Source: an uncultured bacterium
GTDB lineage: Bacteria; Oederibacteriota; Oederibacteriia; Oederibacteriales; Oederibacteriaceae
Assembly: GCA_965112635.1 (NCBI GenBank)
Contig: OZ218778.1
Location: forward strand, 1,796,404-1,828,403
Reading direction: 5' to 3'
DNA length: 32,000 nt
The translations under genes were made by a program, and so were the position numbers. Under the pieces are notes generated by a model that did no database searches, had not been told where the DNA came from, and saw only the letters and a program-made list of their open reading frames with translations. Shown piece after piece: positions 7,067 through 32,000 of this stretch (positions are counted from its first letter, which is position 1; the number at the start of each line of letters is the position of its first letter).

Positions 7067-7130
7067 TTTTGTCTTCTTAAATTTAAGTTTGACGACGCGT
7101 TTTCATTCTAATCAACATTGAGTCGACCGC

Positions 7131-7158
7131 TTGTTTTCATTTGTTCGGGTGCTATAAT
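7131..7158 (+). promoter_or_regulatory. Promoter with extended -10 (TTGTTT-16 nt-TGcTATAAT) driving the intergenic RNA
   Basis: TATAAT at 7153-7158 is preceded by TGc (extended -10). A weak -35 TTGTTT is at 7131-7136. Confidence 0.5.
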
Positions 7159-7164
7159 TTAATC

Positions 7165-7357
7165 ATAAAAATTCCCTGCGGTGTTCGTGATGAAATGACG
7201 AGTTTTGAGCCAACACCTTTTTGGAAGGGACCCGACCTCTAAAAGCAGTGTGCATACCTTGACTCAGGTTGAGGCAGCCTAATGCTTTTTCGGGGGTACC
7301 CACTTATTCATTAAGGTTCAAAAACCAAGTTTCACACGGCACAGGTGGGGAATTTTT
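7165..7357 (+). ncRNA. ssrS: Candidate 6S RNA (ends approximate)
   Basis: The 294-nt zapA-rarA spacer has its own promoter. The 5' AAAAAUUCCCUGCGGUG (7167-) pairs with the 3' CACAGGUGGGGAAUUUUU (-7357) to form a long closing stem ending in a U-run. Internal helices include AAAAGCA/UGCUUUU, and CCUUGAC/GUUGAGG with a UCAG loop. A small GGUU-CAAA-AACC hairpin sits on the 3' side. Size is ~190 nt. The synteny zapA-ssrS-(5-formyl-THF cyclo-ligase) is as in E. coli. Confidence 0.55.
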
Positions 7358-7372
7358 ATTTTGGGGAAAGAC

Positions 7373-8740: not shown

Positions 8741-9330
8741 CTAAAGAAAAGCTTAGACAAAAAATGCTGGCTCTTAGGTTAAATCAGATTCCTTTAACCA
8801 AGAAGCGCAAAAGCCTTCTTGTTTCCAAGAATTTATTCAGTCTTTCTTGTTACAGCGAGTCGCGGAATATCATGGTTTATTTTGATTTTAAGGGTGAAAT
8901 CAATACAGGTCTGATCATACAGGAAGCATTGAAAGAGGGTAAGAAAGTTCTTTTTCCAGATATAATCCCAAAAACAAGAAAACTAAATGTTTTTGAGTTG
9001 AGGAATTTTAAAAAAGGATTTAAAAAGGGCTATTTTGGCATTCCAGAACCTGTTCAAATGTCCAAAAGGGTTTTTCCGTATTCGAAGATAGATATTGTTT
9101 TAGTTCCCGGAATTGCTTTTGATTATAAGGGTTTCCGAATAGGTTTTGGAGGTGGTTATTACGACCGTTTTCTCAGATTATTACCCAAAAGAGCTATAAA
9201 AGTCGGGTTGGCTTATGACTGGCAATTGGTTCAAAGAGTTAGCCATGAAAAGCACGATATTTGTTTAGATTTATTAGTCACTAATGAGCAAATCGTTATT
9301 ATTAACAAGGCAATGCTAAAAAACCTTTAA
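8737..9330 (+). CDS. 5-formyltetrahydrofolate cyclo-ligase
   Basis: VPGIAFDYKGFRIGFGGGYYDRFL plus an N-terminal K..LR......R pattern. The ATGA overlap with the rarA stop suggests coupling. Confidence 0.85.
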   Translation: MTKEKLRQKMLALRLNQIPLTKKRKSLLVSKNLFSLSCYSESRNIMVYFDFKGEINTGLIIQEALKEGKKVLFPDIIPKTRKLNVFELRNFKKGFKKGYFGIPEPVQMSKRVFPYSKIDIVLVPGIAFDYKGFRIGFGGGYYDRFLRLLPKRAIKVGLAYDWQLVQRVSHEKHDICLDLLVTNEQIVIINKAMLKNL

Positions 9331-9344
9331 TTTCCTTGCAAAAG

Positions 9345-9372
9345 TTGACTTCACTAAGGTATTTGCTATAAT
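9345..9372 (+). promoter_or_regulatory. Promoter with extended -10 (TTGACT-16 nt-TGcTATAAT) for hup
   Basis: TTGACT at 9345-9350 and TGCTATAAT ending at 9372. Confidence 0.55.
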
Positions 9373-9410
9373 TCACCATCATTTTCAAATTTAATAAAAG
9401 GGGAGGATAT

Positions 9411-9683
9411 ATGACTAAAAGTGAGTTGCACAAGAGTATCGCTGAGGATGTCAACCTCAAGAAAAGCGATATTCAAAGGGTGATGGAGTCCTTAAATAAG
9501 CATATCTACAATACCCTTAAAAAAGAAAGGAAATGCAAATTAGACGGCCTGGGAATCTTTGCCGTTAAAGATAGAAAAGCCCGCCAAGCCAGAAATCCTA
9601 AAACGGGTGAAATCGTCAATGTTCCGGCCAAAACAGTTGTGAAATTCAGGGTTGGGAAAGACCTCAAAGCCGTAGTTCTTTAA
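9411..9683 (+). CDS. hup: DNA-binding protein HU
   Basis: A 90-aa protein with GLGIFAVKDRKARQARNPKTGEIVNVPAKTVVKFRVGKDLK, the HU/IHF beta-arm signature. GGGGAGGA lies upstream. Confidence 0.9.
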   Translation: MTKSELHKSIAEDVNLKKSDIQRVMESLNKHIYNTLKKERKCKLDGLGIFAVKDRKARQARNPKTGEIVNVPAKTVVKFRVGKDLKAVVL

Positions 9684-9822
9684 TTAAATAGGCCTTGCCA
9701 ATTCAGAACTTTTAACAGCAAGTATTTTTGATCGTTTTTGGCTTAAGAATATTTATAAAAGTGAGGCAACTTTAAGAGGGACATTTGTCCATTTTTCTCA
9801 AAGTTGAATTTACAGCAAATTC

Positions 9823-9866
9823 ATAGCCCTATTTCCTGCTTGTCCTGGGAAATAGGGCTATTTTGT
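9823..9866 (+). terminator. Rho-independent terminator, 140 nt downstream of the hup stop
   Basis: A perfect 14-bp stem pairs ATAGCCCTATTTCC (9823-9836) with GGAAATAGGGCTAT (9848-9861), followed by TTTT. Confidence 0.6.
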
Positions 9867-9903
9867 AATAATTGATTGTAATTATTAGGAAAAGGGTATT
9901 CCT

Positions 9904-11031
9904 ATGGTCGAATTGAAGGAAACTTTAAATCAGGTTGAGCGGATTGTTATCAAAATTGGGTCTAGTTTACTGGCTAGCCATGAAGGCGGCCTGCACAAAA
10001 AATATATCCAGAATATTACAGACGATATATCAGCCCTGAAACAATCCTGTAAAGAAATTATCCTCGTTACTTCCGGGGCTATTGGTACAGGCATGGTGAG
10101 GCTGGGATTAACAAAAAGGCCTATCACTATCCCGGAAAAACAAGCGGTCGCTGCGGTTGGACAATGTTTGCTTATGAAAGAGTATGAAGAAGCTTTTAGA
10201 CAACATGGTTATTTTGTGGGGCAATTGCTTCTGACCGCAGAAGATCTTTCCGATCGCCAGCGATACGCCAACGCCAGGCAAACCCTGTTGACCCTTCTAG
10301 GCAAAGGCATTGTTCCCATCATTAACGAGAATGACACGGTGGCTGTTGACGAGATAAAGTTCGGGGACAACGACCGGCTTTCGGCCCTGGTGACCAATCT
10401 CGTTGGAGCCCATCTGCTTATCGTTCTTACGGATGTAGACGGATTTTATACCAGCGACCCCAGAAAGGACAAAAAAGCCTTGCCGATTCCCGTCGTGAAT
10501 AAGATTACCCCTGAGCTTATGGCCCAGGCCGGAGGGACTGGTTCTTCTCACGGGACCGGAGGGATGACCACAAAGCTTTTGGCTGCCCAAATCGTCAACC
10601 AAGCTGGGGTAGGAATGGTCATTGCCAACGGTTTGAAGCCAAAAATACTGTTAGAAATTTTCAGGGGAGAGAGGTGCGGGACCTTCTTTGCTCCAACTGG
10701 AGATCGCATGGCTGGCCGAAAAAGGTGGATCGCTTTTTCCAAGAAAACCTCAGGAACCCTCACGGTTGACGAGGGGGCCAAGGAGGTTTTACGCTTTAAG
10801 GGTAAAAGCCTACTCCCTTCAGGTATCGTGAAAATAGAGGGAGACTTTGGCTTTGGCGATGCAGTCAATATCGTTTCCACGGAAGGCAATATTTTTGCGG
10901 TCGGTATGGTTAAATACAGTTCTATGGAGTTGGAAAAAATCAAAGGCAAACAGACCAAGGACATCGCCGGGATCTTGGGGCAGAAATTTTATGATGAAGT
11001 TGTCCACAGGGACGATCTGGTTATTTTGTAG
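9904..11031 (+). CDS. proB: Glutamate 5-kinase (with C-terminal PUA domain)
   Basis: IVIKIGSSLL, VTSGAIG.G, NENDTVAVDEIKFGDNDRLSALV and GTGGMTTKL motifs are present, followed by a PUA-like C-terminus. Confidence 0.95.
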   Translation: MVELKETLNQVERIVIKIGSSLLASHEGGLHKKYIQNITDDISALKQSCKEIILVTSGAIGTGMVRLGLTKRPITIPEKQAVAAVGQCLLMKEYEEAFRQHGYFVGQLLLTAEDLSDRQRYANARQTLLTLLGKGIVPIINENDTVAVDEIKFGDNDRLSALVTNLVGAHLLIVLTDVDGFYTSDPRKDKKALPIPVVNKITPELMAQAGGTGSSHGTGGMTTKLLAAQIVNQAGVGMVIANGLKPKILLEIFRGERCGTFFAPTGDRMAGRKRWIAFSKKTSGTLTVDEGAKEVLRFKGKSLLPSGIVKIEGDFGFGDAVNIVSTEGNIFAVGMVKYSSMELEKIKGKQTKDIAGILGQKFYDEVVHRDDLVIL

Positions 11032-11080
11032 TTGGGAATTACACTCTTCCGGTGGTGGGTAAAATGATAAGGAATAATCC

Positions 11081-12340
11081 ATGACAGTTAAACAAATGGT
11101 TTTGAAAAGAGCCCAGGAGGCAAAGCAGGCCAGTCCGACCTTGGCCAAATTATCCAGTGGGGTAAAGAACAAAGTCCTTGCGGCCATGGCCGATGCGTTA
11201 GAGCACCAGAAGGGCAAGATCCTAGAAGCCAACCAGAAGGATATCAAGGCAGCCGTGGGCCGCAAGCTATCCAAAGCACTCATCGACCGCTTGACTCTAA
11301 ATAGCGAACGCATCAAGTCCATGGGCGAGAGTTTGATGACCATAAAGTCCCTGGCGGACCCTGTGGGGGAAATCGTAAAAATTTGGCGCCGGCCCAACGG
11401 GCTTCAAGTGGGGCGGATGAGGGTCCCTCTGGGGGTAGTCGGAATCGTTTATGAGTCCAGGCCTAACGTCACCGTGGACGTGGCTGGCCTGTGTTTAAAA
11501 TCAGGCAATGCCGTGGTCCTGAGAGGGGGTTCCGAAGCGTTTGGCAGCAATAAAGTCTTGGCCGAAATCCTCCAGGACGCCCTTAGAAAAGAAAATCTGC
11601 CGGCGGGCAGCGTCAGCTTTATCGAAAGCGTGGACCGCCAGGCTGTGGTGGAGATGCTCCGTCTGCGTTCTTTGATCGATGTGATCATCCCGCGGGGAGG
11701 CAGGCAACTTAATGATTTCGTTTCTACCCACAGCCTTGTACCGGTGATCCGCCACGACATCGGGAACTGCCACGTTTTTATCGACTCAGACGCGGACCTG
11801 GAAATGGCCGAAAAGATATCTTTTAACGCAAAAGTCCAGCGTCCCGGAGTTTGTAACGCCATGGAAACTCTTTTAGTCCACAAGAATATTGCCAAGAAGT
11901 TTTTGCCGAAAATGGTCAGAAAGTATCAACAGGCCGGAGTGGAGATCCGGGGCGATGATGCTGTCCGAAAATATTGCCGCGGGATCCAGCGAGCCACAGA
12001 GAAGGATTGGTACACGGAATATCTGGATCTCATTCTGGCGGTCAAGGTGGTCGCGAATATTGATGAGGCTATGGCCCATATCGCCAAATATGGTTCTAGC
12101 CATACGGAGGCTATTGTCACTCGGACCTATGAGCATGCCCAAAGGTTCCTGAGAGAGGTTGACTCAGCCTGCGTGATGGTCAATGCTTCCACCAGGTTTA
12201 CGGACGGCGGACAATTTGGCCTTGGTGCTGAAATGGGGATCAGCACCCAGAAGTTGCATGCCCGGGGGCCAATGGCCTTGGAAGAATTAACTTGTCTGAA
12301 ATACATAGTCTATGGGAACGGCCAGATCAGGGAGTCGTGA
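11081..12340 (+). CDS. proA: Gamma-glutamyl phosphate reductase
   Basis: VGIVYESRPNVTVD, NAVVLRGGSEA, CNAMETLLVH, HIAKYGSSHTEAIVT and NASTRFTDGGQFGLGAEMGISTQKLHARGPM are present. Confidence 0.95.
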   Translation: MTVKQMVLKRAQEAKQASPTLAKLSSGVKNKVLAAMADALEHQKGKILEANQKDIKAAVGRKLSKALIDRLTLNSERIKSMGESLMTIKSLADPVGEIVKIWRRPNGLQVGRMRVPLGVVGIVYESRPNVTVDVAGLCLKSGNAVVLRGGSEAFGSNKVLAEILQDALRKENLPAGSVSFIESVDRQAVVEMLRLRSLIDVIIPRGGRQLNDFVSTHSLVPVIRHDIGNCHVFIDSDADLEMAEKISFNAKVQRPGVCNAMETLLVHKNIAKKFLPKMVRKYQQAGVEIRGDDAVRKYCRGIQRATEKDWYTEYLDLILAVKVVANIDEAMAHIAKYGSSHTEAIVTRTYEHAQRFLREVDSACVMVNASTRFTDGGQFGLGAEMGISTQKLHARGPMALEELTCLKYIVYGNGQIRES

Positions 12341-12354
12341 CCGCAAAGGACAAT

Positions 12355-12981
12355 ATGATCAGTCACCGGGGATCCGTGGGGATATTTGGAGGGACATTCA
12401 ATCCAATCCATCTGGGCCATTTGCTGGTCGCCCAGGAAGTCAGGGAAAAATATGGTCTAAAACAGGTAGTTTTCATCCCTGTTTATTTGCCGCCCCATAA
12501 GAGCGCTAAGGGTGTCATTGAGCCCAAGCACCGTCTCAATATGATTAAAAAAGCCATCCAGGGTAACCCCTATTTTAAAGTTTCAAACGTGGAAATCGCC
12601 AGGAAAGGAAAGTCATATACTTTCGATACTATTCAATTTTTTCGGCGTCGCCTAGGGAAGGGTGCGCCGCTTTTCTTTATCACCGGTTCAGATGCCCTTA
12701 ATACCCTGCATCATTGGTATAAGATTGAGCAGCTGCTGGCGCTGTGCCAGTTCATTATTGTACCCAGGCCGGGGCATCCCATGCCTCCGGCGAAAAGGTT
12801 TCTCGCCCAGCGTTTATTTAGCAAGAAGATGCTGGAAAGGATCCATTACACCAAACTCAAAGTCGTGGATATCTCTTCATCTGAAATAAGAAGGATGGTC
12901 CGGGACAAGAGAGATGTTTCCTATCTTGTCTCAAAGCCGATCGCAGATTATATGAAGAGCCATCAGCTCTATAAAAATTAA
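12355..12981 (+). CDS. nadD: Nicotinate-nucleotide adenylyltransferase (the track's 12292 start would overlap proA; ATG 12355 follows AAAGGA)
   Basis: GIFGGTFNPIHLGHL (the HxGH motif), plus ISSSEIR near the C-terminus. An in-frame GTG at 12337 is an alternative start. Confidence 0.9.
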   Translation: MISHRGSVGIFGGTFNPIHLGHLLVAQEVREKYGLKQVVFIPVYLPPHKSAKGVIEPKHRLNMIKKAIQGNPYFKVSNVEIARKGKSYTFDTIQFFRRRLGKGAPLFFITGSDALNTLHHWYKIEQLLALCQFIIVPRPGHPMPPAKRFLAQRLFSKKMLERIHYTKLKVVDISSSEIRRMVRDKRDVSYLVSKPIADYMKSHQLYKN

Positions 12982-12991
12982 GTCAAGCGAG

Positions 12992-13360
12992 GTGATCGCC
13001 GTTAGAAGCAAGCCCGTCAATCAAGAATTGGTGACCACGGTCCTTAAAGCCACTGACGATAAGCAAGCCCATGATGTTGTGCTTTTAGATGTCAGAAAAT
13101 TGACCTATTTGACCGACTACCTGCTTATTTGCCATGGCCATGCCAGGACCCATATTCAAGCCATAGCCGATGAATTAAGGACCAAGCTCAAAGCGATGGG
13201 GCTGGGTTATGGGAGGATGGAGCGGGACAAGGGAGAAACCTGGATCCTGTTGGATTTTAACGAAATTATTTGCCATATTTTTTCAAAGGAAGCTAGGGAG
13301 TTCTATGCTCTGGAGAAGTTTTGGGATGAAGCTCATAAAATCAATGGTAGGATACATTAA
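12992..13360 (+). CDS. rsfS: Ribosomal silencing factor RsfS (Iojap family), GTG start
   Basis: DVVLLDVRKLTYLTDYLLICHG.......AIADEL and W.LLDFNEIICHIFSKEAREFYALEKFW are present. nadD-rsfS is a conserved gene pair. Confidence 0.9.
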   Translation: MIAVRSKPVNQELVTTVLKATDDKQAHDVVLLDVRKLTYLTDYLLICHGHARTHIQAIADELRTKLKAMGLGYGRMERDKGETWILLDFNEIICHIFSKEAREFYALEKFWDEAHKINGRIH

Positions 13361-14145
13361 TGAATTATGATTCTATTTTCAGGGGGTGGAGCATGAGGCA
13401 GATAAAGGTCGTATCCATATTTTTGTTGATGGCAGTCCTTTTAGGGGGGCTTGTCCCAGTATCCGTTTTTGGCAAGGATGAAGACACGAAGCGTGTAGCC
13501 ACAAATTTGTATGTCGTGGATATCCCTACTGCGAACACTTTATTAAGGGGCACTTATGATGCCTTTGCCAGGTTGTACGCTCCCGACGGCATTGTCGGTA
13601 GGTTTGTGATAGCCTTGAACGACCAGTTTCTTTTTGGTGGCGGTATCAACATGGAAAATATCATTGGTTCGGGGGATGTCCAGGCCCAAACTCCGCGTTT
13701 TATAGCTAAATGGAGAATTATTGCGGAGGATAAAAATATCCCTGCCTGCGCCATAGGTTATGATGGGTTGGGTTATGGTGACTATAATTCTGATTCTGGG
13801 GTTTGGCAGCACAAGCAAAAAGGTTTTTATGGCGCAGTGACCAAAGAGTTCAGTAGTTTTGGAATCTTCCAATTGACGTGTGGAATGAGCAGGGTGGATA
13901 GTCGTGTTTATGACCCCCAGCGGGATATCACGGCATTTGCGGGTCTGGCTGCGGCTATTATCAAAGAAGTAGCTCTAAATGTGGAATATGATGATTGGTT
14001 TAATACTCAGGGCGGAGAATTTAATGTCGGGCTTGGTTATAATTTTGACCCTGCCATGAAGCTGGAATTTGATCTCGAGGATATCGGAAGAGCCGGGGAT
14101 TCCCTGGAGCGCACTTTAAAGATCGAATATTGCAATTACATTTAG
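13360..14145 (+). CDS. Exported beta-rich hypothetical protein (the signal peptide begins at M12, so ATG 13393 is an alternative start)
   Basis: MRQIKVVSIFLLMAVLLGGLVPVSVFG is a classical signal peptide. The remainder is rich in alternating aromatic/Gly segments. No family was recognised. Confidence 0.55.
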   Translation: MNYDSIFRGWSMRQIKVVSIFLLMAVLLGGLVPVSVFGKDEDTKRVATNLYVVDIPTANTLLRGTYDAFARLYAPDGIVGRFVIALNDQFLFGGGINMENIIGSGDVQAQTPRFIAKWRIIAEDKNIPACAIGYDGLGYGDYNSDSGVWQHKQKGFYGAVTKEFSSFGIFQLTCGMSRVDSRVYDPQRDITAFAGLAAAIIKEVALNVEYDDWFNTQGGEFNVGLGYNFDPAMKLEFDLEDIGRAGDSLERTLKIEYCNYI

Positions 14146-14205
14146 TGGCGAGATTTTCCCATATTTACAACCATTCTTGCTCTTTTTGTATTTTTAGCTA
14201 CTTCG

Positions 14206-14234
14206 TTGACAAACGGTATTATGACAAGTAATAT
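14206..14234 (+). promoter_or_regulatory. Sigma70-like promoter (TTGACA-17 nt-TAATAT) heading the motor/envelope cluster
   Basis: TTGACA at 14206-14211, a 17-nt spacer, then TAATAT at 14229-14234. It lies in the 187-nt gap after the housekeeping block. Confidence 0.5.
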
Positions 14235-14332
14235 TCATTCAATACAGTAATTCATATTGTAAAATCAGCGTTTTCTGTTGTTTGGTTGAGTGCGTGGGGA
14301 AGTATTTTCCCTGAAAAAATAAAAAAGGGAAA

Positions 14333-14692
14333 GTGAAGGGCGTGAAAAAAGCTGATGAAATCAAAAGACCTCTGAGTTTTGCGACAGGCGAAAAACGAGA
14401 GGCCTTTAGTGCTTTGATCAGGCTTCTCCAAAATGGCGACTGTACTCCTGAAGAACTCACCAAGTATATACTTTCCCAAAAGCAATCTCAGGAACAATCC
14501 GAAGAAACAGAAATCCCCGCTTCCCGGACATTCCATTTTGGATCCGATTATAGGACTAAAGAGCGAGCCTTTACTCATTTTGAGCATATGCCCCGGATGG
14601 CCAAGCCAAAAGTTAATTATTTCAACTGGACGGTATTCTTCTTCTTTCTTTTCATGACCATCTTTATACTTCGCAATTTTATTTTTCGATGA
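14333..14692 (+). CDS. Small tail-anchored membrane protein, unknown function (GTG start)
   Basis: A soluble N-terminal ~95 aa is followed by one C-terminal TM (WTVFFFFLFMTIFILRNFIF). Its stop TGA (14690-14692) overlaps the SD GAGGA of the next gene. It competes with an antisense 181-aa ORF, which I reject. Confidence 0.4.
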   Translation: MKGVKKADEIKRPLSFATGEKREAFSALIRLLQNGDCTPEELTKYILSQKQSQEQSEETEIPASRTFHFGSDYRTKERAFTHFEHMPRMAKPKVNYFNWTVFFFFLFMTIFILRNFIFR

Positions 14693-14702
14693 GGATAAAA
14701 CA

Positions 14703-16367
14703 GTGAGCTTTATCAAAGATTGTGACAACTGGCTGCGCTTGGGAAAAATGCTTACAGGCTGGTTGTTGTTTGTGAGCATTTTCTTTATGACCAGCATCTA
14801 CGCTTTGGACTTAACCCATGGTGACCTGTTGGTCGGAAAGTTGCAATATGAAAGGGAATTAGAAAGAAGGATACAGTCCATATTGATCTCCACGGTTGGT
14901 CCTCAAAAGGCGAAAGTTTCGGTGACCCTGGAGGTCAACAGCGAAGTCGTCTCCAGCAAGGAGGAAACAATCCATTCCGAGACCACCAGCCAGACCATTG
15001 TATTGAGCAACGGCATCCAAGAGGAGAACTTTGACAATCCTGAGGCGGGGACGGGTGGTCCAGGCAAGGAAGGCAGCGCCAATCAGGCTAGCAGCAATGT
15101 CTTGGAAGAAACCCGGACCACCAAAGAAACCTTGTCGATGCCTTCCAATTTGATCAAAAAGCTGTCTATCTCTTTGTTGATCAGCGACAAGGTCCCTGAT
15201 GCTCTTATCGAAAAAGCCAAGACCATCATTATGGAAGCAGTCAGTTTTAATGCCGACAGGGGGGACCAGCTATCTTTACAAAAGGTCACCTTTATTTCCG
15301 GTGCCGCAGGGGAGATGGAGCAGATCCAGGACCAAAAACAGACAGCGGATTTCTGGCTTGCTTTAACCCGGTATGCCTTGAGCTTGATCTTGGGGGTCGC
15401 TTTCCTTTTGTTTTTGTTCAGTTTGTTAAATACTTTCCGTACCCTGAAACAGGCTGAGATCAATGTGTCCGCTCAGGCCATAGCCGCCAAGGCAGCCCCT
15501 GCCGAAGGCGAGGTCGCAGGACCGGCCGGGGCCACGGCGATCCCGGCTGCGGGATTTGCTGCCGTAGGTGTCCCCGGCACAATGCTTCCCGGGATGCCTA
15601 TGGGAATGCCTGGAACGATCACGGTTGGACCCCAGCGCTTCGCTTTCCTCCAGGAGAAGAATTCCAGGGCTCTTCTGCATTTGATCCAAAAAGAGCCGAT
15701 CCAAACTATTGCTTTAGTGCTTTCCTATATTACCCCAGAGCAGGCAGCCGGGATCTTGCAGTCCCTCCCAGGGGAGATCCAAAGCCAGGTCGCCTCTAGG
15801 ATCTCTACGATCAGTGAAATGTCACCGACGGAAGTGAACAGAATCGAGCAGGATATCAAAGAGAAGATCGATTATGTGGTGGGGGGCAGGGATTCCCTGG
15901 TCAATATCATCCAGAGCATGGGTCCCGATGGAATGAAGGCTATCATCGGCAATCTTGACAGGAGCAATCCAAAGCTGGCCGGTGAATTGAGGCCTTCACT
16001 ATTTACTTTCGATGATGTCCTCCTGTTGGATAGTTTTGCGATCCAGCAAGTTGTCAGGCAACTGAGCATTCCGGAACTGGCCATCGCTTTAAAAAATGCC
16101 AGCGAAGAGATAAAGAACAAGGTTTTTGGGGCCTTGGCTGAGGGTGCCGCCCAGTTGCTCAGGCAGGAACTGGAGTTGATGAGGCCGCTGCCCGCTCGGC
16201 GCTATATAGAAGCGCAGCGTAAATTTATTCAGGCGGTAAGGATACTTGAACAACAGGGCGTAATCTTTGTGCAGAGAGAAGAATCGACTCCTTCCTCAGT
16301 CGGCGGCAACGACCTGGGTGGTGGGCCTGGTTTAGGGCCCGATTCTCCTTTGGCGCCGATGACCTAG
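14703..16367 (+). CDS. FliF-like (YscJ/FliF ring-building, 2 TM) protein fused to FliG middle and C-terminal domains
   Basis: GTG lies 7 nt after GAGGA.
- TM1 is at ~14748-14807.
- Periplasmic region: YERELERRIQSIL..VGPQKAKVSVTLEV and KKLSISLLISDKVP...IIMEAVSFNADRGDQLSLQKVTF, the FliF/YscJ RBM pattern.
- TM2 is at 15351-15428.
- An Ala/Pro/Gly-rich linker runs over ~15470-15640.
- FliG_M-like region: KEPIQTIALVLSYITPEQAAGILQSLPGEIQSQVASRI...VVGGRDSLVNIIQSM (from 15690).
- FliG_C-like region: LFTFDDVLLLDSFAIQQVVRQLSIPELAIALKNASEEIKNKVFGALAEGAAQLLRQELELMRPLP..YIEAQRKFIQAVRILEQQGVI (15999-16270).
- The protein ends in a Gly/Pro-rich tail. Confidence 0.75.
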   Translation: MSFIKDCDNWLRLGKMLTGWLLFVSIFFMTSIYALDLTHGDLLVGKLQYERELERRIQSILISTVGPQKAKVSVTLEVNSEVVSSKEETIHSETTSQTIVLSNGIQEENFDNPEAGTGGPGKEGSANQASSNVLEETRTTKETLSMPSNLIKKLSISLLISDKVPDALIEKAKTIIMEAVSFNADRGDQLSLQKVTFISGAAGEMEQIQDQKQTADFWLALTRYALSLILGVAFLLFLFSLLNTFRTLKQAEINVSAQAIAAKAAPAEGEVAGPAGATAIPAAGFAAVGVPGTMLPGMPMGMPGTITVGPQRFAFLQEKNSRALLHLIQKEPIQTIALVLSYITPEQAAGILQSLPGEIQSQVASRISTISEMSPTEVNRIEQDIKEKIDYVVGGRDSLVNIIQSMGPDGMKAIIGNLDRSNPKLAGELRPSLFTFDDVLLLDSFAIQQVVRQLSIPELAIALKNASEEIKNKVFGALAEGAAQLLRQELELMRPLPARRYIEAQRKFIQAVRILEQQGVIFVQREESTPSSVGGNDLGGGPGLGPDSPLAPMT

Positions 16368-16421
16368 GAAGCCGCTGCGGCGTCAGATTGACACTAAAAC
16401 CAAGTTTGGAGCATATCAATA

Positions 16422-17186
16422 ATGGATAAGATGTCATTGTTTGGCTATGTCTTTGGTGTCGGTATATTCCTGCTGGGTATGCACCAGGGCGGGACGACCA
16501 GCCTTTTCTTGAATGAGCACGCGGTGGTCCTCGTGCTGGGGGGTACCTTTGCCGCTGTCATGATCAGTTCCAGTTTTGAACAGACGGTCGTCGCGTTTAA
16601 ATCCCTCAAAATATTGTTTTACCCCAAGAAGTATATGCCTGCTCAAGAAATCATCGATGTGATGGTAGGCTTGGCTGAGAAGGCCAGAAGGGATGGAGTG
16701 GGTTCTCTGCCCGAGGAGGCAAAAAAATATAATGAGCCCTTTCTTTCCAACTCGGTTCAGCTAGTGGCGGACGGTTTGCCTTCTGCAACGGTCCAGGAGA
16801 TCATTGAAATGGAGATCAATAATACCCGGGACCGCCATAAGGAGAACAGCAATTTCTACCGTGTGGCCGGTATCTACGGCCCCATGTTCGGTCTATTAGG
16901 AACTTTGATCGGCATCGTCCAGGTGCTGAGGAATATTGGGGGGGACCCGACCACAGTGGGTCCGGCCATGGCTGTTGCCATTACGACGGCTTTTTACGGG
17001 ATATTTCTGGCGAACTTTGTGTGTATGCCCATCGCCAATAAACTGAAATTAAGATCAGATGAAGAACTCGCTTTAAAAGAACTTACCATCGTTGGTCTTA
17101 TTGCCATCGAATCCGGAGACCTACCCTTGGTTGTGCGGAGAAAGATGGAGACTTTTCTGTCCTATTCCCAGAAAAAAAAGAAATAA
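16422..17186 (+). CDS. motA: MotA/PomA-family stator protein (4 TM)
   Basis: Two N-terminal TMs are followed by a ~95-aa cytoplasmic loop (AEKARRDGVGSLPEE). TM3 is YGPMFGLLGTLIGIVQVL and TM4 is AMAVAITTAFYGIFLANFVCMPIANKL, with the conserved prolines. Confidence 0.85.
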   Translation: MDKMSLFGYVFGVGIFLLGMHQGGTTSLFLNEHAVVLVLGGTFAAVMISSSFEQTVVAFKSLKILFYPKKYMPAQEIIDVMVGLAEKARRDGVGSLPEEAKKYNEPFLSNSVQLVADGLPSATVQEIIEMEINNTRDRHKENSNFYRVAGIYGPMFGLLGTLIGIVQVLRNIGGDPTTVGPAMAVAITTAFYGIFLANFVCMPIANKLKLRSDEELALKELTIVGLIAIESGDLPLVVRRKMETFLSYSQKKKK

Positions 17187-17256
17187 AAAGCCGTTCATTT
17201 GTTGACCGGGAAAGCGAAGCAATGCTTCATCCCTCGAAGGGATAAAGGAATCTGCC

Positions 17257-17952
17257 ATGGCCATCAGAAAAAGACCTCCTGAAGATATCGAATCCCTTAT
17301 GCATCGCGGGACGCAATGGATCATTGTTTATGGCGACCTGATGTCCTATTTGATGATATTTTTCCTTATCTTGTTCGCATTTGCCTCGGCCAAAAAAGGG
17401 AATTTCGTGGAATCCCTCAAGGGAATTGAAAAAACCTTCGGGCAAAAAGAGAAGAAGATGTCCCAGGAGGCGATGAAAGAGGTTCAGGTCCAATCCGAGA
17501 TACAAAGTTTTCTGGTCGCGCAAAACCTGACCCAAGTTGCCCGCGTGGTCATGACCGAACAAGATCTAAAAGTTATATTGACCAGCCCAGTGCTTTTTCC
17601 GTCCGGCTCGGCAGAGTTGCATCGCAAATCTTACGGTATTTTGCATACTATAGCCCAATCTATGAAAGATATGCCGAACTATGTCACGGTTGAGGGCTTC
17701 ACGGATAATGTCCCAATTCATTCAGCCAAATACAGTTCCAACTGGGAATTGTCCGCGGCGCGAGCCATGCAAGTTGTCAAATACTTTATTGAAGAGGAGA
17801 AAATCTCTCCCACTCAGATCTCCTTCACGGGGTATGGCGAGTACCAGCCGGAATATACCAATGACACCGAAGAACACCGGGGATTGAATAGAAGGATCGA
17901 GATTATCATCCACCGCATTTTGGTCCCCGTCACGGCAACAAAAAAATCGTGA
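17257..17952 (+). CDS. motB: MotB-family stator protein with an OmpA-like peptidoglycan-binding domain
   Basis: WIIVYGDLMSYLMIFFLILF carries the channel Asp (D27, codon 17335-17337). The C-terminus TVEGFTDNVPI....YSSNWELSAARA..V..Y........I.F.GYGEY.P......EEHRGLNRRIEIII is the OmpA/MotB motif. Confidence 0.85.
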   Translation: MAIRKRPPEDIESLMHRGTQWIIVYGDLMSYLMIFFLILFAFASAKKGNFVESLKGIEKTFGQKEKKMSQEAMKEVQVQSEIQSFLVAQNLTQVARVVMTEQDLKVILTSPVLFPSGSAELHRKSYGILHTIAQSMKDMPNYVTVEGFTDNVPIHSAKYSSNWELSAARAMQVVKYFIEEEKISPTQISFTGYGEYQPEYTNDTEEHRGLNRRIEIIIHRILVPVTATKKS

Positions 17953-17968
17953 GAATGAGGGCGGGATT

Positions 17969-19459
17969 TTGAGAATAATCATATGGGTCCTAGCCGCTTT
18001 GATCGTGGGGGGTGCCGGTCTTGCGGCGGCCCAGGAAGCCCAGATGCCCAGCGCCGACATCTTTGTCCACGGTAATCTGGGGCAGCAAAAGATCGGGAAT
18101 ACGATCGTCATCCAATGCGATGTCTTTAACACGGGGCCTGTGGCGCATTTTTTCCCGGTCTCCGTGAAATTAATGAACGCTGCCGATAACATCGTCCTGC
18201 CGTTCCAGTCCATTTATTTAAAACCCGGGCAGTTCGGCACCTTGACTTTCAATTATGCCTTAAAACCCGACAGCACGAGCCTCGGCCTTTATGCGGTGGA
18301 GGGCAGTGTTTGGCAGGTTCAGGGGCCTAAAAAACGCCTGTCCCTCAAAACCGATACCCAAATCTTTGAGGTGGTGTTGGGTGAAGTTATGAAAAGTGTC
18401 GTCCTGGAAAATTTAACGCTCAAGGGGAAGGTCGTGGGAGGCTCCACGGTGTCTTTGAAATGCCTGGTCCGCAACACCGGCAAGGTTTCCTATACCTTCC
18501 CCGTGAGCGTTAATTTGAGCGGGAGCGATGGGCCTTTTATCGCACCGGTCAAGACCGTGACCCTGGGGCCCAAAAAGAACCAGGGCCTTTCTTTTGATGT
18601 CAAAATACCCGCTGAAGGGATAGAGCCTAACGCGGTTTTGAGGGTCGTCGCCTGGGATAGGAAGGACGAGAAGGGAAAGTTGCTCATGCCTTACGCTGAC
18701 GCCGTCATATCCTTGGAGACAGCCAGCCAGACCTCGGTGGAGGCGTCTTTTGACGGCGAGATAGGGGACCAGCCCCGGGGCAAGACGTTTACTATTGCTT
18801 GCAAGATTAAAAATAACGGCGGCACCCGATTTGAGTTCCCCGTCAAGCTGGATATTTTAGATTCTTCTGATGAACTGGTCGCGACCCCTAAACCTAAAAA
18901 AGTCCTTTTAAAACCAGGGGAAACGAAAAGGATCGGCTTCAGCACCGCGATCAAAGAGGTGGGTGCTTACCAAGCTGTGGTGAGTGTTTGGAAAGAAAGA
19001 CGCGGACCCGACAGTTTTGTCGATAAGCTTACGGAGGAGGAACAGAATTTTTCGATTGCCAACGAAGCCACAGGAGGGGCTGAGCAGCAGGGGATGGACC
19101 TCGGAGTCGGCGAGACCCCTTCCGTGGCCCCGCCTGCGGTGAAATTGATGGACATCATGCTGGCAACATCCCAGGACCAAAAAACACCGGTCAAGGCCCA
19201 GGTGTCCGATAAATTGGGGGCGGTTTCCTGCCGCCTCTATTACCGCCTGAGCACCGAAACAAATCCTGATTTTGTGGAGATGAACCTTTTTTCTGGAGAT
19301 GCCAAGAGTGGAGTATGGGTGGGCGAGGTGGATCTCTCCAGACTTTCTGGAAAAATAATTTTTTACGCGGAAGCGGCCAATACAGAGTCCGTGCTAGGTC
19401 GATCCAAAGAATACAGTATTGCCAAGATGGCTACTCCGAAAAACAAACCCAATAAATGA
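17969..19459 (+). CDS. Exported protein with three CARDB-like Ig-fold repeats plus a distinct C-terminal domain (TTG start)
   Basis: Signal peptide is MRIIIWVLAALIVGGAGLAAAQEA. Three ~95-aa repeats (~18050-18330, ~18398-18670, ~18735-19010) share the pattern x-C-x-[VI]-x-N-x-G...F-x-F-P-V-x-[VL]...L-x-P-G/K....F. Confidence 0.6.
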   Translation: MRIIIWVLAALIVGGAGLAAAQEAQMPSADIFVHGNLGQQKIGNTIVIQCDVFNTGPVAHFFPVSVKLMNAADNIVLPFQSIYLKPGQFGTLTFNYALKPDSTSLGLYAVEGSVWQVQGPKKRLSLKTDTQIFEVVLGEVMKSVVLENLTLKGKVVGGSTVSLKCLVRNTGKVSYTFPVSVNLSGSDGPFIAPVKTVTLGPKKNQGLSFDVKIPAEGIEPNAVLRVVAWDRKDEKGKLLMPYADAVISLETASQTSVEASFDGEIGDQPRGKTFTIACKIKNNGGTRFEFPVKLDILDSSDELVATPKPKKVLLKPGETKRIGFSTAIKEVGAYQAVVSVWKERRGPDSFVDKLTEEEQNFSIANEATGGAEQQGMDLGVGETPSVAPPAVKLMDIMLATSQDQKTPVKAQVSDKLGAVSCRLYYRLSTETNPDFVEMNLFSGDAKSGVWVGEVDLSRLSGKIIFYAEAANTESVLGRSKEYSIAKMATPKNKPNK

Positions 19460-19499
19460 TCCGGAATCAGGATACAGGCATCGGCCTTAGGGGTGAATC

Positions 19500-20177
19500 A
19501 TGAAGACAAGGTCAAAAAATATTTCAATGGAATTATCAATCAGCCTTTGTTTTCTTGTTTTGTTCTGCTTGTCCGCAGAGCTATGGGGCGCCCAGCCCAG
19601 CGCGACACCATTTTCCCCGCAGTCGGATAATGACTACGAACAAAATTACAACGAAGCGATGTCCTTTTACAATGCGGGATTGTTGGATAAGGCCAAGGCC
19701 AGCTTTCAAAAGGTGATCAAGATAAGACCAACGGCCGGAGCCTATCATTATCTGGGCATGATCAGCCAAAAAAAGAACCAGGTCAAAGACGCCATCTGGC
19801 AATGGAAGCAGGCTTTAAACTTGGAGCCGCGACTGGCTGTGGTCTGTTTTAATATCGGGTTGGCTTATGGTTCGTTGAAGCAAGTGGACGAACAGATTAA
19901 ATGGTATAAAAAGGCAGTGGCTTTAAATCCGAAATATTCAAAAGCATGGAACAATCTCGGTTCAGTGTATCTTGAGAAGAAGAGGACCACCGATGCATTA
20001 AATGCCTTTAGGACCTCGTTGAAAACCAATCCCCATTATGCTGTGGCCGCGGAGAATCTGGCCCTGGTCTATGAAAAGATGGGTCGTCACATTGAAGCCA
20101 AGAAGGAATGGAAATACGCCGCTTCGATAGAGACGAGGCCTGAGTGGAAAAAGGTTTTGGCAGCCAGAGCCAAGTAA
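19500..20177 (+). CDS. Exported tetratricopeptide-repeat (TPR) protein
   Basis: An N-terminal hydrophobic signal (LSISLCFLVLFCLSAELWGA) is followed by 4-5 TPR units (e.g. AWNNLGSVYLEKKRTTDALNAFRTSLKTNPHYAVAAENLALVYEKMG). Confidence 0.8.
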   Translation: MKTRSKNISMELSISLCFLVLFCLSAELWGAQPSATPFSPQSDNDYEQNYNEAMSFYNAGLLDKAKASFQKVIKIRPTAGAYHYLGMISQKKNQVKDAIWQWKQALNLEPRLAVVCFNIGLAYGSLKQVDEQIKWYKKAVALNPKYSKAWNNLGSVYLEKKRTTDALNAFRTSLKTNPHYAVAAENLALVYEKMGRHIEAKKEWKYAASIETRPEWKKVLAARAK

Positions 20178-20264
20178 TGAGCTAGCTAGATTCCTTTGGT
20201 TTTATCCTTTCAATTTTGTTTTTCCTTTATTTACAACCCTTTTATTAAATCCTTTTCTTAAATT

Positions 20265-20280
20265 TGTGACCAAAATCACA
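20265..20280. promoter_or_regulatory. Perfect CRP-type palindrome TGTGA-N6-TCACA
   Basis: TGTGAccaaaaTCACA is read directly at 20265-20280. It lies in the 207-nt AT-rich spacer, ~150 nt upstream of the preferred start of the PorV-like gene. Candidate -10 hexamers are TAAAAT (20325-20330) and TATAAC (20335-20340), with no good -35. Confidence 0.4.
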
Positions 20281-20429
20281 CCAAAAAAGTGAAGAAATCA
20301 AGGGAATTATCCTGGTTTATCCGCTAAAATTTCCTATAACAATTTATAAAAAATCGAAAAAGCCGGCCCAATGCGCGAGCTTGGGTGGGAAAACTATCCT
20401 CCTATAATTTAGGAACAAGGGGTATACCG

Positions 20430-21365
20430 GTGGCTGATATACATAAAGAAAAAGATATTCTTCTTTTACCCCTTCTCATTACTTTTCTTGCCCTGACTTG
20501 CCTCATCTTCATCCCTGTCCTCGTGTCCGCTGAAGGAAATACTGCCGCTCAATTTTTAAAGATCCCTATCTCAGCCCGTCCAGCCGCCATGACTGCTTTT
20601 GGAGCCGTCTCTGACGACGTGAACGCCTTGCTTTATAACCCGGCCGGCTTATCCCAATTGTCCCAAAACGAGTTCTCCCTCTCCTATGTTAAATATTTCA
20701 CCGACACAAACATGGCATTTTTGGGACTGGCTGTCCCGCTCGCGCACATCGGCACTTTTGGTCTTGGCGTCACATACCTGAGCGTCCTGAATATTGACGC
20801 CAGGGACGCGCAGGAGAACCAGGCCGGAAGTTTTGGGAGCACGGATTGGGCCGTCACTTTGTCCTACGCCAAGGAAAACCTATGGGGCAACCTGAATGCA
20901 GGGGCAAGCCTTAAGGTGGTGGGGGAGACTATCGATGCCACAAGCGCAAACGGGCTGGCCGGCGATGTGGGGGTCCTTTGGATCGGTAAAGAGCCGAGGG
21001 CTTCGATAGGACTGGAAGTGGAAAATGTCGGGACCGGCCTGCAATTCATCAATGTCAGTGATCCCTTACCCTTGGGAGTTGTTCTATCAGGTGCTTACTG
21101 GCCAGTGGAACAGATAGTCGTCGGTACGGATGTGGACATGTATGTGCTGGAGAACAAGACCTATGTGTCCCTGGGCGGGGAAGACTGGCTGACCAAAGAG
21201 TTCGCTCTCAGGCTTGGTTACAAGTTCGGGACCGATCTGGGCCCGCTTTCCGGTTTGACCGGTGGGATAGGGCTGGCCATGGCGGGTTACAGCGTGGACT
21301 ATGCCGCTGGAGATGCCGGAGACCTGGGCACACTGCACCGGGTTTCTTTGGGAATAAAATTTTGA
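20430..21365 (+). CDS. PorV/PorQ-like (FadL-like) outer-membrane beta-barrel protein (the track start 20385 lacks an SD; GTG 20430 follows AAGGGG by 7 nt)
   Basis: Signal peptide is ...LLLPLLITFLALTCLIFIPVLVSA. The mature N-terminus AAQFLKIPISARPAAMTAFGAVSDDVNALLYNPAGLS matches the (P)FL-x-I-x-x-x-A-R-x-x-G/A-M-G...D...NPA motif I associate with the PorV/PorQ family. Alternating beta-strand segments continue to the C-terminal LHRVSLGIKF. Confidence 0.6.
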   Translation: MADIHKEKDILLLPLLITFLALTCLIFIPVLVSAEGNTAAQFLKIPISARPAAMTAFGAVSDDVNALLYNPAGLSQLSQNEFSLSYVKYFTDTNMAFLGLAVPLAHIGTFGLGVTYLSVLNIDARDAQENQAGSFGSTDWAVTLSYAKENLWGNLNAGASLKVVGETIDATSANGLAGDVGVLWIGKEPRASIGLEVENVGTGLQFINVSDPLPLGVVLSGAYWPVEQIVVGTDVDMYVLENKTYVSLGGEDWLTKEFALRLGYKFGTDLGPLSGLTGGIGLAMAGYSVDYAAGDAGDLGTLHRVSLGIKF

Positions 21366-21378
21366 AAGGGCAGGCTGA

Positions 21379-24300
21379 ATGAAGCTGGAAGGCATGTTAA
21401 AAAAAATAGGGAAGGCGGTCGTCCTGGCTCTGGTCCTGGGCCTGGGGATGATGCCTTTGGCCTATGCCGGCACCCGCATCAAAACCGTGGAATTTTTCCT
21501 GGGCCAGTATGAGATGGGGCAGGTCAATCTTATCCCTGCCCTTGAGTTTGACACCCCGTCCAAAACCATCGCCCTTCCAGAATCCTCTATTGTTGTCCGT
21601 TCAGCCTGGGTGGACATGCATTTTGTCAGCCAGGATCAAACCAATTTTGAAGCCAATTTTACCGCTGTCACCTTGACGGCAGGCTCTGCGATAGGTTTTG
21701 CCAGCACCAGCAAATTCGCCGCGGCGACAGACAGCCATGATAATGCTTATCATGTGAGATATGACTTTACTTCGGCCCTGCAAACTTTGACCACCGGCCA
21801 ATGGAATACTGGTCAAAGTGTTCAGGCCAAGATCAAATTTTTTGCCGCTACCAATTTCCATGCGGTCAAGCTGTATATCACCTATGAGTATGATGATACT
21901 TCCGCCACCCAGCTAAAAACCGTCAGATTCCCCCTGGATTCTATGGTGGGAGATTTGACCGTAGCTGACCTTCCTTGTACCGTGATGATCCCTCCAGCGG
22001 AAAGAAGTTCCCCGGGATACAGCTTGAAAGACGCCTGGTTCGAAGTGCACGGGCAGATGGATTATATCTCCGGTGCCATGACCGTAACCGCCCAGATCTA
22101 CCAGAGCGGCACTCCCCAGGGGTCTCCTTCCCAGGGAGGCTGTATCCCTTTGATCACCGGGAACGCTAATTTTGAGTGGACTTATTTTTACGATAATACA
22201 GCCAACCTGGCTCTGGATGGCACAACCCAAAGCCTGCGTTTAACGGCCAAGATGGGCAGTTTCCTGCATCCGGGCGGAGAACTGGTGGTCACTTACCAGG
22301 CCACCAATGATGTTATGGGCGCCTTAAAGACCGTGGAAATACCCCTGGCCCAGGGAGTTCTGGCCAATCAAGGTCCTGCCACTTTTACAATTCTGAATTA
22401 TCTCCAGGATAGCGGGGCCAACATACAAAAAATGTGGGCCAGGGTCAGAGGCGTCTGCAATGTGAACACTTATTCGGCCATTACTATTACCGGTGTGGCC
22501 AATGGCACACCAACGGGTCAGTTTGCTTATGAAATGTTTAGTTCCGGCGGCGGTTCAGATACCATGAATGAATACGAACTCATTTATGAAATGACCCAGC
22601 CCTATGCCAACCCCATGACCGTGACCCTGACCGCTACCGGCGGCTCCTCGCCCAGCGCTGTCCTGCTGATAACCTATGGTTGGAATAAGAACCAGAATGG
22701 ACATGAGTTCAAGACGCACCGGCAGCTGATAGGACAGGAAACCAGCCCTTTCCTGTCCGGGACAGTGGGAAATGTGACCGTTTATGCCCCTGAAACTAAT
22801 ACCAAAACCAAACAGGCTGCTTACGCGGATTGGACCTATTTTGCCGATGCCAATTCTACCAACTGGTGGGTCAGCACTACCATATCCGCGGGTTCGGGTA
22901 TGGCCCCAGCTTATGCCGCATTAGACAACAGCTATAAACAGACAGAAGGGATCAACCCAGACCTGAGTAGTGCTGTTTCTGTTTTGAATGCTTCCAATGG
23001 TCCTTATAGTTTTAATAGGAGCGGCTTTGTCATCGGTATGATGGGCGGGGATATGATCGTGACTTATGATGTAGCTTTCCCCACTTCCACCCCAACAAGT
23101 ACGCCCCCGCCGTCAACGTCAACTCCCACTACTTCTCCGACCCGGACGGCTACGGTTACGCCAACTGGAACGGCAACAACAACACCTACATCCACCTCTA
23201 CTAGAACTGCCACTAATACGGTTACTCCAACTTCCACATCGACAACCACCGTTACACTGAGTCAAACAGCTTCGGTCACTCCCAGCCTGACAATCACTCC
23301 CACTGGAACCCAGACACTCACGCAGACCTATACCGCCGGTCCCAGCCAGACGGCTACAATGACCCCTACGAGCACAACCACGATGACGGTAACAGCAACC
23401 CCTTCAGCAACGTTGACTATGACTACCACAGTCACGCAGACAGCCACACCGAATGGCGGCGGGACGACGATGCTGGATGCGATGACTGGGTTCAGCCTAG
23501 GTAGCGACCCGTGCGGCTACTTTCCTTTGCCAAGTGGTTCCATTACTCTTTCTAAAAATTCCAGTAACTATTACGATTGTTGCAATTCTTTACAAATATC
23601 CAACCTTACAAGCACTGGTACTATGGTGCAGATAAAAGTTGAAGATATCACAGGTTCTCCCCAGGATTGGTCCTGTTATTCATCCGTGTCTTTTTGGATA
23701 ATGGCAACTACTTCCGGGGTGCAATATCGGATTGGTTTAAGAGACAACTCCAGTAACTGGACTTGGTCAAGCACCAGTCCGCTTACTTGTCCAACCAGCT
23801 GGACGCAAGTAACCGTCCAGTTGCAAATGTTGGGAAATCCTACCGGATACGACGGATTTAAAAGCGGTTACCTAGGCCCTAATGACTTTAGCCAACTAAC
23901 TTGCGTGGAAATCGAATGTGATACGGCCAATGCGACCATACTAATGAATGACCTGGCGTTAGAAGGTAGTCCCTGCACACCTTCTCCCACGCCGTCTGGG
24001 TCGACCTATACTTATTCCTATACCTATACTTACACAACACCGCCGACCAACACCAATACCAATACTCCCACGCCTAGCAGCGCCACCTTGTACCTGTTGA
24101 ATACGACAACGGGTGATTCCAGTTTGTGGTATATGGACAAAACCAACCCGTCGCCCTCCACGGATACCACCACAATTCTTTCCACGGGGACCACGGCGGC
24201 TGGTAACTATTTCCTCGTTGAGCCTGGTGTGGCCAATTCCACCTCTTCAGGCACTGTTCTTCCCACTACTTTCAGCCAGATGGGCTGGAGAAGTCCAAAT

Positions 24301-32000: not shown

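Follow-up and report, generated by a model that had tools for sequence, protein, structure and literature searches.

The window, 32,000 nucleotides of contig OZ218778.1 from an uncultured bacterium of the Oederibacteriota (assembly GCA_965112635.1), contains a cluster of eight co-oriented open reading frames (ORFs) on the plus strand that runs from position 14333 to the window end, downstream of a sigma-70-like site. The cluster encodes a protein in which FliF-like and FliG-like domains are fused, the stator pair MotA and MotB, an exported protein of tetratricopeptide repeats (TPR225), an outer-membrane beta-barrel of the PorV/PorQ family and a giant exported protein. These parts are known, their combination fits no described system, and together they make up a conserved module that has no name. 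The domains of the products are identified by profile matches, and the linkage of the genes is conserved in two other subfamilies of the fusion, which come from distantly related uncultivated bacteria. The cluster may accordingly be read as a conserved envelope-spanning module in which a non-flagellar rotor and stator are coupled through the periplasm to barrels that hold surface proteins, a reading to which a probability of roughly one half is assigned.

The candidate rotor protein is the fusion. Two transmembrane (TM) helices (residues 17-35 and 224-242, about 190 residues apart) enclose a periplasmic domain that resembles RBM3 and the beta-collar of FliF, and the second helix is followed by an Ala/Pro/Gly-rich linker of about 70 residues, FliG_M and the torque domain FliG_C. 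Pfam identifies FliG_C (7.7e-29), FliG_M (2.6e-20) and YscJ_FliF_C (3.1e-11), and the family profile of the fusion aligns with FliG middle- and C-domain structures (4e-76), with residues 239-508 only of Salmonella FliF (2e-9), and weakly with SpoIIIAG. A low-confidence AlphaFold2 (AF2) model built from a four-sequence alignment, used only for domain-level matches, folds the periplasmic domain as alpha-beta-beta, an insert, and beta-beta-alpha-beta, and in Foldseek the model matches FliG MC (about 1e-9) and the RBM3/collar rings of FliF (about 2e-5, target TM-score 0.55-0.62). An earlier note on this DNA, made from the sequence alone, had described a FliF/FliG-like fusion; FliG_M, FliG_C and the FliF C-terminal domain agree with that description, but the FliF part comprises RBM3 and the collar and is not a complete FliF. 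Neither RBM1 nor RBM2 was found in the fusion, where only the YscJ_FliF_C/RBM3-collar region matches, and there is no separate FliG_N, as a 28-bit FliG_N match overlaps FliG_M. On TIGR00207 the fusion reaches 151.8 bits (cutoff 226.7). When the fusion is aligned with E. coli FliG, EHPQ is replaced by EPIQ, R281 by Gly and D288/D289 by Q/E, while K264 is kept (roles of FliG residues partly from PMC7564593).

The stator pair is of a recognizable type. MotA (Pfam MotA_ExbB, 6e-27) finds its best NCBIfam models in PomA, MotA and MotP at 176-184 bits (PomA 184), below their equivalog cutoffs (237-394), versus 22.9 bits for TolQ and 17 for ExbB, and it is 32% identical to Vibrio PomA. It has four TM helices and a charged cytoplasmic torque loop ('ARRDG...PEE') that retains the equivalent of R90 and the acidic pair, and both conserved prolines of TM3/TM4 are present. 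MotB combines a plug (MotB_plug, 3e-10) with an OmpA-like peptidoglycan-binding domain (OmpA, 8.4e-21), and the channel Asp equivalent to Asp32 is retained in 'VYGDLMS'. The plug, the channel Asp and the OmpA-like domain are among the PomA/MotB-type features listed as specific to the stator class named flagellar ion transporters (FIT) (PMC12505986). The Pfam and NCBIfam scores and the kept functional residues uphold the previous assignment to MotA and MotB, and the sequence comparisons largely establish the pair as a flagellar-type (PomA-like) stator, not a TolQ/ExbB-like one. A Tol/Ton/Agl-type (GIT) motor was considered and rejected on the TolQ and ExbB scores and the presence of the MotB plug.

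The barrel scores 157.1 bits on the NCBIfam PorV/PorQ family model NF033709 (cutoff 90), in keeping with the PorV/PorQ-like barrel proposed previously. It falls below the equivalog cutoffs of PorQ (123.7 vs 220) and PorV (55.2 vs 250), Pfam PorV matches at just 0.043, and there are weak matches to UPF0164, FadL-like (Toluene_X) and pilus FilD models. The length tabulated below counts from GTG, and the public gene call has 311 residues. TPR225 was correctly named an exported TPR protein, with a signal-peptide-like start and matches to TPR_2 (1.2e-25) and many further Pfam TPR models. Two more PorV/PorQ-like barrel paralogues lie about 15-19 kb upstream of the cluster on the same contig (L027:495-2543 and L027:2604-4124); with 60 and 69 bits they do not reach the cutoff of 90, and one is fused to a FlgD_ig-like domain while the other has a weak Fn3 match. 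The source genome therefore has several barrels of the PorV/PorQ family.

The giant ORF has no stop in the 3540 codons up to the window end, and its gene call has 3740 residues on the 230-kb ENA contig, which matches the window exactly, as does a 2.88-Mb NCBI contig. The protein begins with a signal-peptide-like sequence and contains Thr-rich linkers. Pfam finds no match in the complete visible ORF; its segments give weak matches to Fn3, CarboxypepD_reg, Ig and CBM domains, with two Fn3 domains and a CarboxypepD_reg-like domain near the visible end. Tandem repeats at 29642-30473 (periods of 150 and 384 nt, 75-85% matches) encode low-complexity linkers rich in Thr, Ala and Gln, and this region likely varies in length between strains. 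A homologue search with the last 331 visible residues returned only Fn3 fragments from other samples. The name given previously, a giant secreted adhesin-like protein, holds for the open frame of more than 3540 codons and the signal-peptide-like start, but, the domain matches being weak, 'adhesin-like' is tentative. Giant size is peculiar to the window locus: where related loci have a complete gene, the partner has about 730 residues (a second one 173), and elsewhere contig ends truncate the partner gene, of which at most 1759 residues are visible.

A word-index search with the fusion found four full-length relatives, to which a search with a 76-sequence alignment added none. Their alignment seeded an exhaustive HMMER search in which one representative was kept per cluster of 50% identity, and the plan TM, RBM3, TM, FliG_MC recurs in over 100 of the 150 best representatives. 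No Pfam or NCBIfam model describes the fusion family as such. Gene context was read for three subfamilies, of which A is the window, B comprises L003-L011 (eight loci with sequence upstream of the fusion) and C comprises L013-L023 and L025 (about 11 loci, with a metagenome scan using a 5-sequence subfamily C alignment). Together they amount to about 20 loci, and the fusions of B and C are 27-30% identical to that of the window (B: 27-29%). Engineered FliF-FliG fusions are able to form rings (PMC11481574, PMC10941966). Three longer proteins from the HMMER search (P0091, P0114 and P0162, 787-869 residues), in which the second TM helix lies around residues 430-455 and the FliG part is C-terminal, look from their sequences like full-length natural FliF-FliG fusions.

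In the window (subfamily A) the order is small protein, fusion, MotA, MotB, Ig-repeat protein, TPR protein, barrel and giant protein. Subfamily B, from sediment metagenome-assembled genomes labelled 'Clostridia bacterium' or 'bacterium' (one related genome, 'Candidatus bacterium', has 1.3 Mb; PMC8319310), has the order Fn3 protein with sorting domain, barrel joined to TPR (842 residues), fusion, MotA, two MotB genes, kinase, three response regulators, second sorting-domain protein and second barrel-TPR. [quoted passage not shown] The two MotB genes (L007:8405-9088, with equivalents in L003 and L008-L010) are directly followed by genes for a dCache/HAMP histidine kinase, a REC-REC-REC-GGDEF protein, a REC-REC protein and a REC-REC-VpsR-like protein (L007:9197-14787, also in L008-L010), which hint at control of the module by cyclic di-GMP. 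In L007, which alone was aligned, Asn replaces the channel Asp of the second MotB ('YGNLMT'), and the substitution suggests that this copy is a non-conducting or regulatory paralogue. Both features, the signalling genes after motB and the Asn-bearing MotB copy, are also what might be expected if rotor and stator were an envelope sensor that reports load or surface contact into signalling such as that by cyclic di-GMP and does no mechanical work on cargo. However, neither the window nor subfamily C has these signalling genes, and regulators that adjoin a machine more often control it than form its purpose; such a sensor is considered very unlikely.

Subfamily C, from JGI metagenomes with 34-51% GC, has the order Fn3 protein with sorting domain, barrel joined to TPR, fusion, coiled-coil protein, MotA and MotB. 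The Fn3 protein carries a C-terminal sorting domain of type A (TIGR04183, cutoff 23; 30 bits in two loci and 21 in a third), and the branch formed by L019, L021, L023 and L025 lacks an adjoining sorting-domain gene. The barrels score 135-145 bits on PorV_fam, and the fusion gene begins 6-14 nt past the barrel gene or overlaps it. The fusion ends in a cytoplasmic TPR module, and between it and motA is encoded a cytoplasmic, Glu/Lys-rich coiled-coil protein of 1000-1240 residues with a proline-rich N-terminus (L015:4763-7765, L019:4378-8100, L021:5119-8589, L014:2866-5958), which matches no Pfam family. The regulators of B, and the coiled-coil partner and C-terminal TPR of C, suggest clade-specific control or cytoplasmic anchoring.

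The window barrel is homologous to the N-terminal barrel halves of the barrel-TPR proteins of B and C (27-36% identity); in those subfamilies the TPR repeats extend the barrel protein at its C-terminus, and in the window they are a separate gene. Because barrel, TPR, fusion and MotAB are linked in A, B and C in spite of differing gene orders, the module survives rearrangement as well as fusion or fission of barrel and TPR. This was the outcome of a check that the earlier note had proposed, conservation of the neighbourhood in related genomes: the fusion, a barrel-TPR, MotA and MotB, and usually a sorting-domain protein, occur together in both other subfamilies in an order that differs from that of the window. 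Therefore, the genetic link between rotor-stator and barrel is to be regarded as real on the evidence of conserved linkage. No flagellar genes were found in the flanks of the B and C loci. The pairwise divergences of barrel, fusion and MotA are correlated (r = 0.95-0.98 for 36 pairs from nine loci, values inflated by the three-group structure). If the cluster were a decaying fliFG-motAB relic left by chance beside an unrelated surface-protein operon, the gap of 207-250 nt before the barrel gene could part two transcription units and TPR225 would be just a generic TPR protein. Yet the ORFs are all intact with key stator residues conserved, the linkage recurs in two other subfamilies in different order and with near-zero spacing in C, and the divergences are correlated as described, so that chance adjacency is disfavoured as highly improbable.

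An output other than action on surface proteins is conceivable for such a linked set: the motor might drive a hydrophobic or polymeric substrate through a barrel of FadL-like fold by way of the TPR protein, much as ExbBD-TonB serves TonB-dependent receptors. The weak UPF0164, FadL-like and FilD matches of the barrel are compatible with this, the barrel-TPR fusions put a periplasmic arm on the barrel, and 5:2 motors energise the Ton and Tol processes at the outer membrane (PMC9389320). The top-scoring barrel family is PorV/PorQ, however, and not FadL; sorting-domain proteins repeatedly adjoin the barrel gene; and no TonB-like protein is encoded in the loci. To our knowledge, no transporter with a FliG ring has been described either, and energised transport of this kind is judged quite unlikely.

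For the preferred reading, a module that links rotor and stator to barrels with surface-protein cargo, the following mechanism can be envisaged. RBM3 of FliF forms an S-ring of 33-34 subunits, and FliG_C is the partner of MotA. By homology, copies of the fusion would assemble into a ring in the membrane, with a FliG torque ring below and without the parts that bind the export gate (RBM1/2), the FliF tail (FliG_N) and FliM (EHPQ), and peptidoglycan-anchored, ion-driven MotAB would turn this ring. The TPR module might bridge the periplasm from the S-ring-like face of the ring to the barrel. PorV binds the C-terminal domains of cargo proteins, and PorV, PorQ and PorP/SprF barrels act so in type IX secretion and gliding; the barrel here could likewise hold the C-terminal domain of the neighbouring surface protein, in the window the giant protein. 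Ring formation, rotation, contact between TPR module and ring, and binding of cargo by the barrel are steps that we infer. Rotation would be passed to the complex of barrel and cargo, and as a result barrel-adhesin complexes might move laterally, as in gliding, or cargo might be released or presented with energy from the motor, two outcomes that the present data do not distinguish. The earlier note had proposed a FliG ring and stator repurposed to move, secrete or remodel a giant surface protein; the conserved wiring of rotor-stator to barrel accords with this, and the movement, secretion or remodelling remains an inference. A further step, that the loci define a new class of envelope-spanning rotary machine in uncultivated diderms, in which mini-FliF/FliG rings, MotAB, TPR modules and PorV/PorQ barrels move or release sorting-domain proteins, is put forward tentatively, at rather less than even odds.

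Several observations weigh against this reading, the first of which is a member of the family in other company. In L024 (JGI Ga0265297_10003870, 3096-13411), a fusion of 480 residues with 24% identity to the window protein is directly followed by Pfam-confirmed genes for MotA, MotB, FliK, an FlgE-like protein, FliM, FliN, FliP and FlhB (FliQ and FliR being assigned from ORF size and position only). The L024 fusion has the same TM, RBM3, TM, FliG_MC plan without RBM1/2, and EHPQ is also absent. Therefore, loss of EHPQ alone is no proof of a non-flagellar role. To judge by its gene content, L024 looks like a compact flagellar cluster in which the mini-fusion has replaced FliF and FliG, and a flagellum on a mini FliF would itself be unusual. 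In addition, FliG position R281 is Gly throughout subfamilies A to C, so the rotor-stator charge interface is non-canonical and its charge pairing departs from the E. coli scheme. The AF2 model of the fusion has low confidence (pLDDT 53.7). TPR225 does not specifically resemble the TPR portion of the barrel-TPR proteins. The visible giant protein ends 200 residues before the C-terminus, and the evidence for sorting domains comes from the related loci only. Neither GldLM/PorLM nor GldK/N was found in the window or the flanks of the related loci examined, and neither an outer-membrane translocon (SprA/Sov) nor a PorK/N-like ring near any locus, which leaves the route of the cargo across the outer membrane unaccounted for. 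Finally, the scan for flagellar genes covered the window and 10 kb upstream in a source genome of 2.88 Mb.

The last point and L024 bear on the possibility that the window fusion is the sole MS-ring/C-ring protein of a reduced or unusual flagellum whose other genes lie elsewhere, with the barrel, TPR and surface-protein genes encoding collar- or disk-like accessories or being mere neighbours. It would fit the flagellar (PomA-like) type of MotAB and a faint match of TPR225 to the spirochaete collar protein FlcA (5e-4). In about 20 loci from three subfamilies, though, the neighbours are PorV/PorQ barrels and sorting-domain proteins and never flagellar genes, whereas the L024 type is the closest match for only 4 of 149 representatives. 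The regions that hold the export gate (RBM1/2) and FliG_N are missing, and B and C add non-flagellar extras, namely the C-terminal TM helix of the former and the cytoplasmic TPR and giant coiled-coil partner of the latter. No genes for FliM/N, the export gate (FlhA/B, FliPQR), rod, hook or filament were found in the window, as had been noted before, or in the 10 kb further upstream. By its gene content, the window locus is not an ordinary flagellar locus. A flagellar explanation is unlikely, but it is retained because the L024 fusion sits in a real flagellar cluster.

The features of the cluster are listed in Table 1. As previously described, a promoter-like site is followed by eight co-oriented ORFs; the site scores highest within 13000-22000, an interval in which 20 promoter-like sites were observed versus 10.5 +/- 3.1 in shuffled sequences. 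The gap of 207 nt reported ahead of the barrel gene is correct for the GTG start and becomes about 250 nt with the public start, 45 nt downstream. No riboswitch or other RNA control element was found in the cluster.

Table 1. Features of the rotor-stator and barrel gene cluster in the 32,000-nucleotide window.
Feature	Coordinates	Strand	Basis and remarks
Sigma-70-like promoter candidate, TTGACA-17 nt-TAATAT	14206..14234	+	10/12 consensus positions; consensus match only
119-aa tail-anchored protein	14333..14692	+	ORF and gene call; single C-terminal hydrophobic helix
FliF-FliG fusion (candidate rotor protein), 554 aa	14703..16367	+	Pfam, TM helices, family profile, Foldseek
MotA/PomA-type stator A subunit, 254 aa	16422..17186	+	Pfam, NCBIfam, conserved residues
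MotB-type stator B subunit, 231 aa	17257..17952	+	Pfam, channel Asp
496-aa exported protein (three Ig/CARDB-like repeats, then a beta-rich C-terminal part)	17969..19459	+	Signal-peptide-like N-terminus, visible repeats
Exported TPR protein (TPR225), 225 aa	19500..20177	+	TPR models, signal-peptide-like N-terminus
PorV/PorQ-family outer-membrane beta-barrel, 326 aa from GTG	20385..21365	+	NCBIfam NF033709
Giant exported multidomain protein	21379..32000 (runs past window end)	+	Open frame, 3740-aa gene call

Two proteins of the cluster are without counterparts in the relatives. The 119-aa tail-anchored protein has no Pfam, NCBIfam or PADLOC match and no counterpart in subfamilies B and C; a 49-aa ORF on the 5′ side of the subfamily B fusion was considered and rejected, having no TM helix and no likeness to it. 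The 496-aa protein, for which no counterpart was seen in the related loci, had been called a CARDB-repeat exported protein. Its signal-peptide-like N-terminus stands, and three internal repeats of about 100 residues with a CARDB-like pattern are visible, but the CARDB match (0.0076) is below threshold, as are those to HYDIN and choice-of-anchor-D models, making this the weakest of the labels; an AF2 single-sequence model is all-beta (pLDDT 43.9).

The genes on the 5′ side of the cluster are purely housekeeping, as had been stated: infC, a SpoU methylase gene, pheS, pheT, zapA, 6S RNA, genes for an MgsA-type ATPase and 5-formyltetrahydrofolate (5-FTHF) cyclo-ligase, the HU gene, proB, proA, nadD and rsfS, beyond which another 10 kb of the source contig carries riboflavin genes, nusB and rplT. 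The 6S RNA (Rfam RF00013, 92.7 bits) is at 7170-7355 on the plus strand, flanked by zapA on one side and the MgsA-type ATPase gene on the other, and lies two genes upstream of the cyclo-ligase gene. A 261-aa exported beta-rich protein is encoded at 13360-14145 on the plus strand by a gene whose start codon overlaps the stop of rsfS; Pfam and NCBIfam gave no match for it, and it does not resemble the PorV-like barrel.

A FliG torque ring and stators of the plug-bearing MotAB/PomAB type count as signature components of flagella. A module without flagellar genes nearby, paired with type-IX-style barrels and sorting-domain proteins, would show that rotor and stator have been reused for another job. 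If so, FliG and 'flagellum-specific' stators would here serve outside the flagellum for the first time, and the machine could represent a new type of surface motility or of energiser for secretion; the L024-type flagellar fusion, which may mark the origin of the PorV-linked fusions, would then mark the evolutionary origin of the machine. For flagellar evolution, the minimal natural rotor would be an RBM3 ring with FliG_MC, lacking FliM/N and export gate. The module also bears on how ion-driven motors transmit force to the outer membrane, an open question for T9SS and gliding, and the size of the fusion family (more than 100 clusters at 50% identity) offers many candidates for expression, structure determination and cryo-electron tomography.

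No description of a FliG-MotAB-PorV module was found in the open-access full-text and bioRxiv literature searched, which agrees with the earlier note, whose author knew of no described system with this composition. The Zorya defence system was rejected as a candidate: PADLOC gave generic ZorB matches for MotB (1.8e-21) and no ZorA match for MotA, ZorC, ZorD and ZorE were not found, and none of the other six proteins, the fusion among them, had a PADLOC match. With the core of the flagellar motor, the window cluster shares the FliF RBM3/collar-like domain between two TM helices, FliG_M and FliG_C in the fusion, a PomA-like MotA with the R90 equivalent, acidic residues and prolines, and a MotB with plug, channel Asp and OmpA-like domain. 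In contrast, RBM1/2 and FliG_N are lacking, EHPQ is not kept and R281 is Gly; genes for FliM/N, export gate, rod, hook and filament are absent from the window and the related PorV-linked loci, and the partners kept among relatives are instead a PorV/PorQ barrel with TPR repeats and proteins with sorting domains.

A looser analogue is SiiAB-SiiE, in which SiiAB, a MotAB-like proton-channel pair, is encoded with a giant surface adhesin that requires it. Its operon lies in SPI-4 of Salmonella (bioRxiv 10.1101/641415), and it differs from the present cluster in using type I secretion with an ABC transporter and in having neither a FliG/FliF-like rotor nor a PorV-type barrel. T9SS and the gliding of Bacteroidota, where ion-driven 5:2 motors power secretion and the movement of the SprB adhesin (PMC8986121) and PorP-like barrels serve as anchors for type B sorting-domain proteins (PMC9143113), have in common with it a PorV/PorQ-family barrel, an ion-driven 5:2 motor and a very large surface protein and, in the relatives, type A or type B sorting-domain proteins encoded beside the barrel. 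Here, however, the motor is MotAB on a FliG ring and not GldLM/PorLM, GldK/N, SprA/Sov, PorU and PorZ are absent from every locus examined, and the barrel is below the PorV/PorQ equivalog cutoffs, with a C-terminal TPR on the barrels of the relatives. The Agl-Glt system of Myxococcus has a TolQR-like motor (AglRQS) without FliG, and its sequence relation to the cluster is limited to the TPR repeats, TPR225 and the fused TPRs having faint matches to Tgl and GltE models far below cutoffs. Its logic is nevertheless the same, as an ion-driven motor of the inner membrane is combined with periplasmic TPR lipoproteins, outer-membrane barrels and a surface adhesin, and the giant cytoplasmic coiled-coil protein of subfamily C is reminiscent of AglZ.

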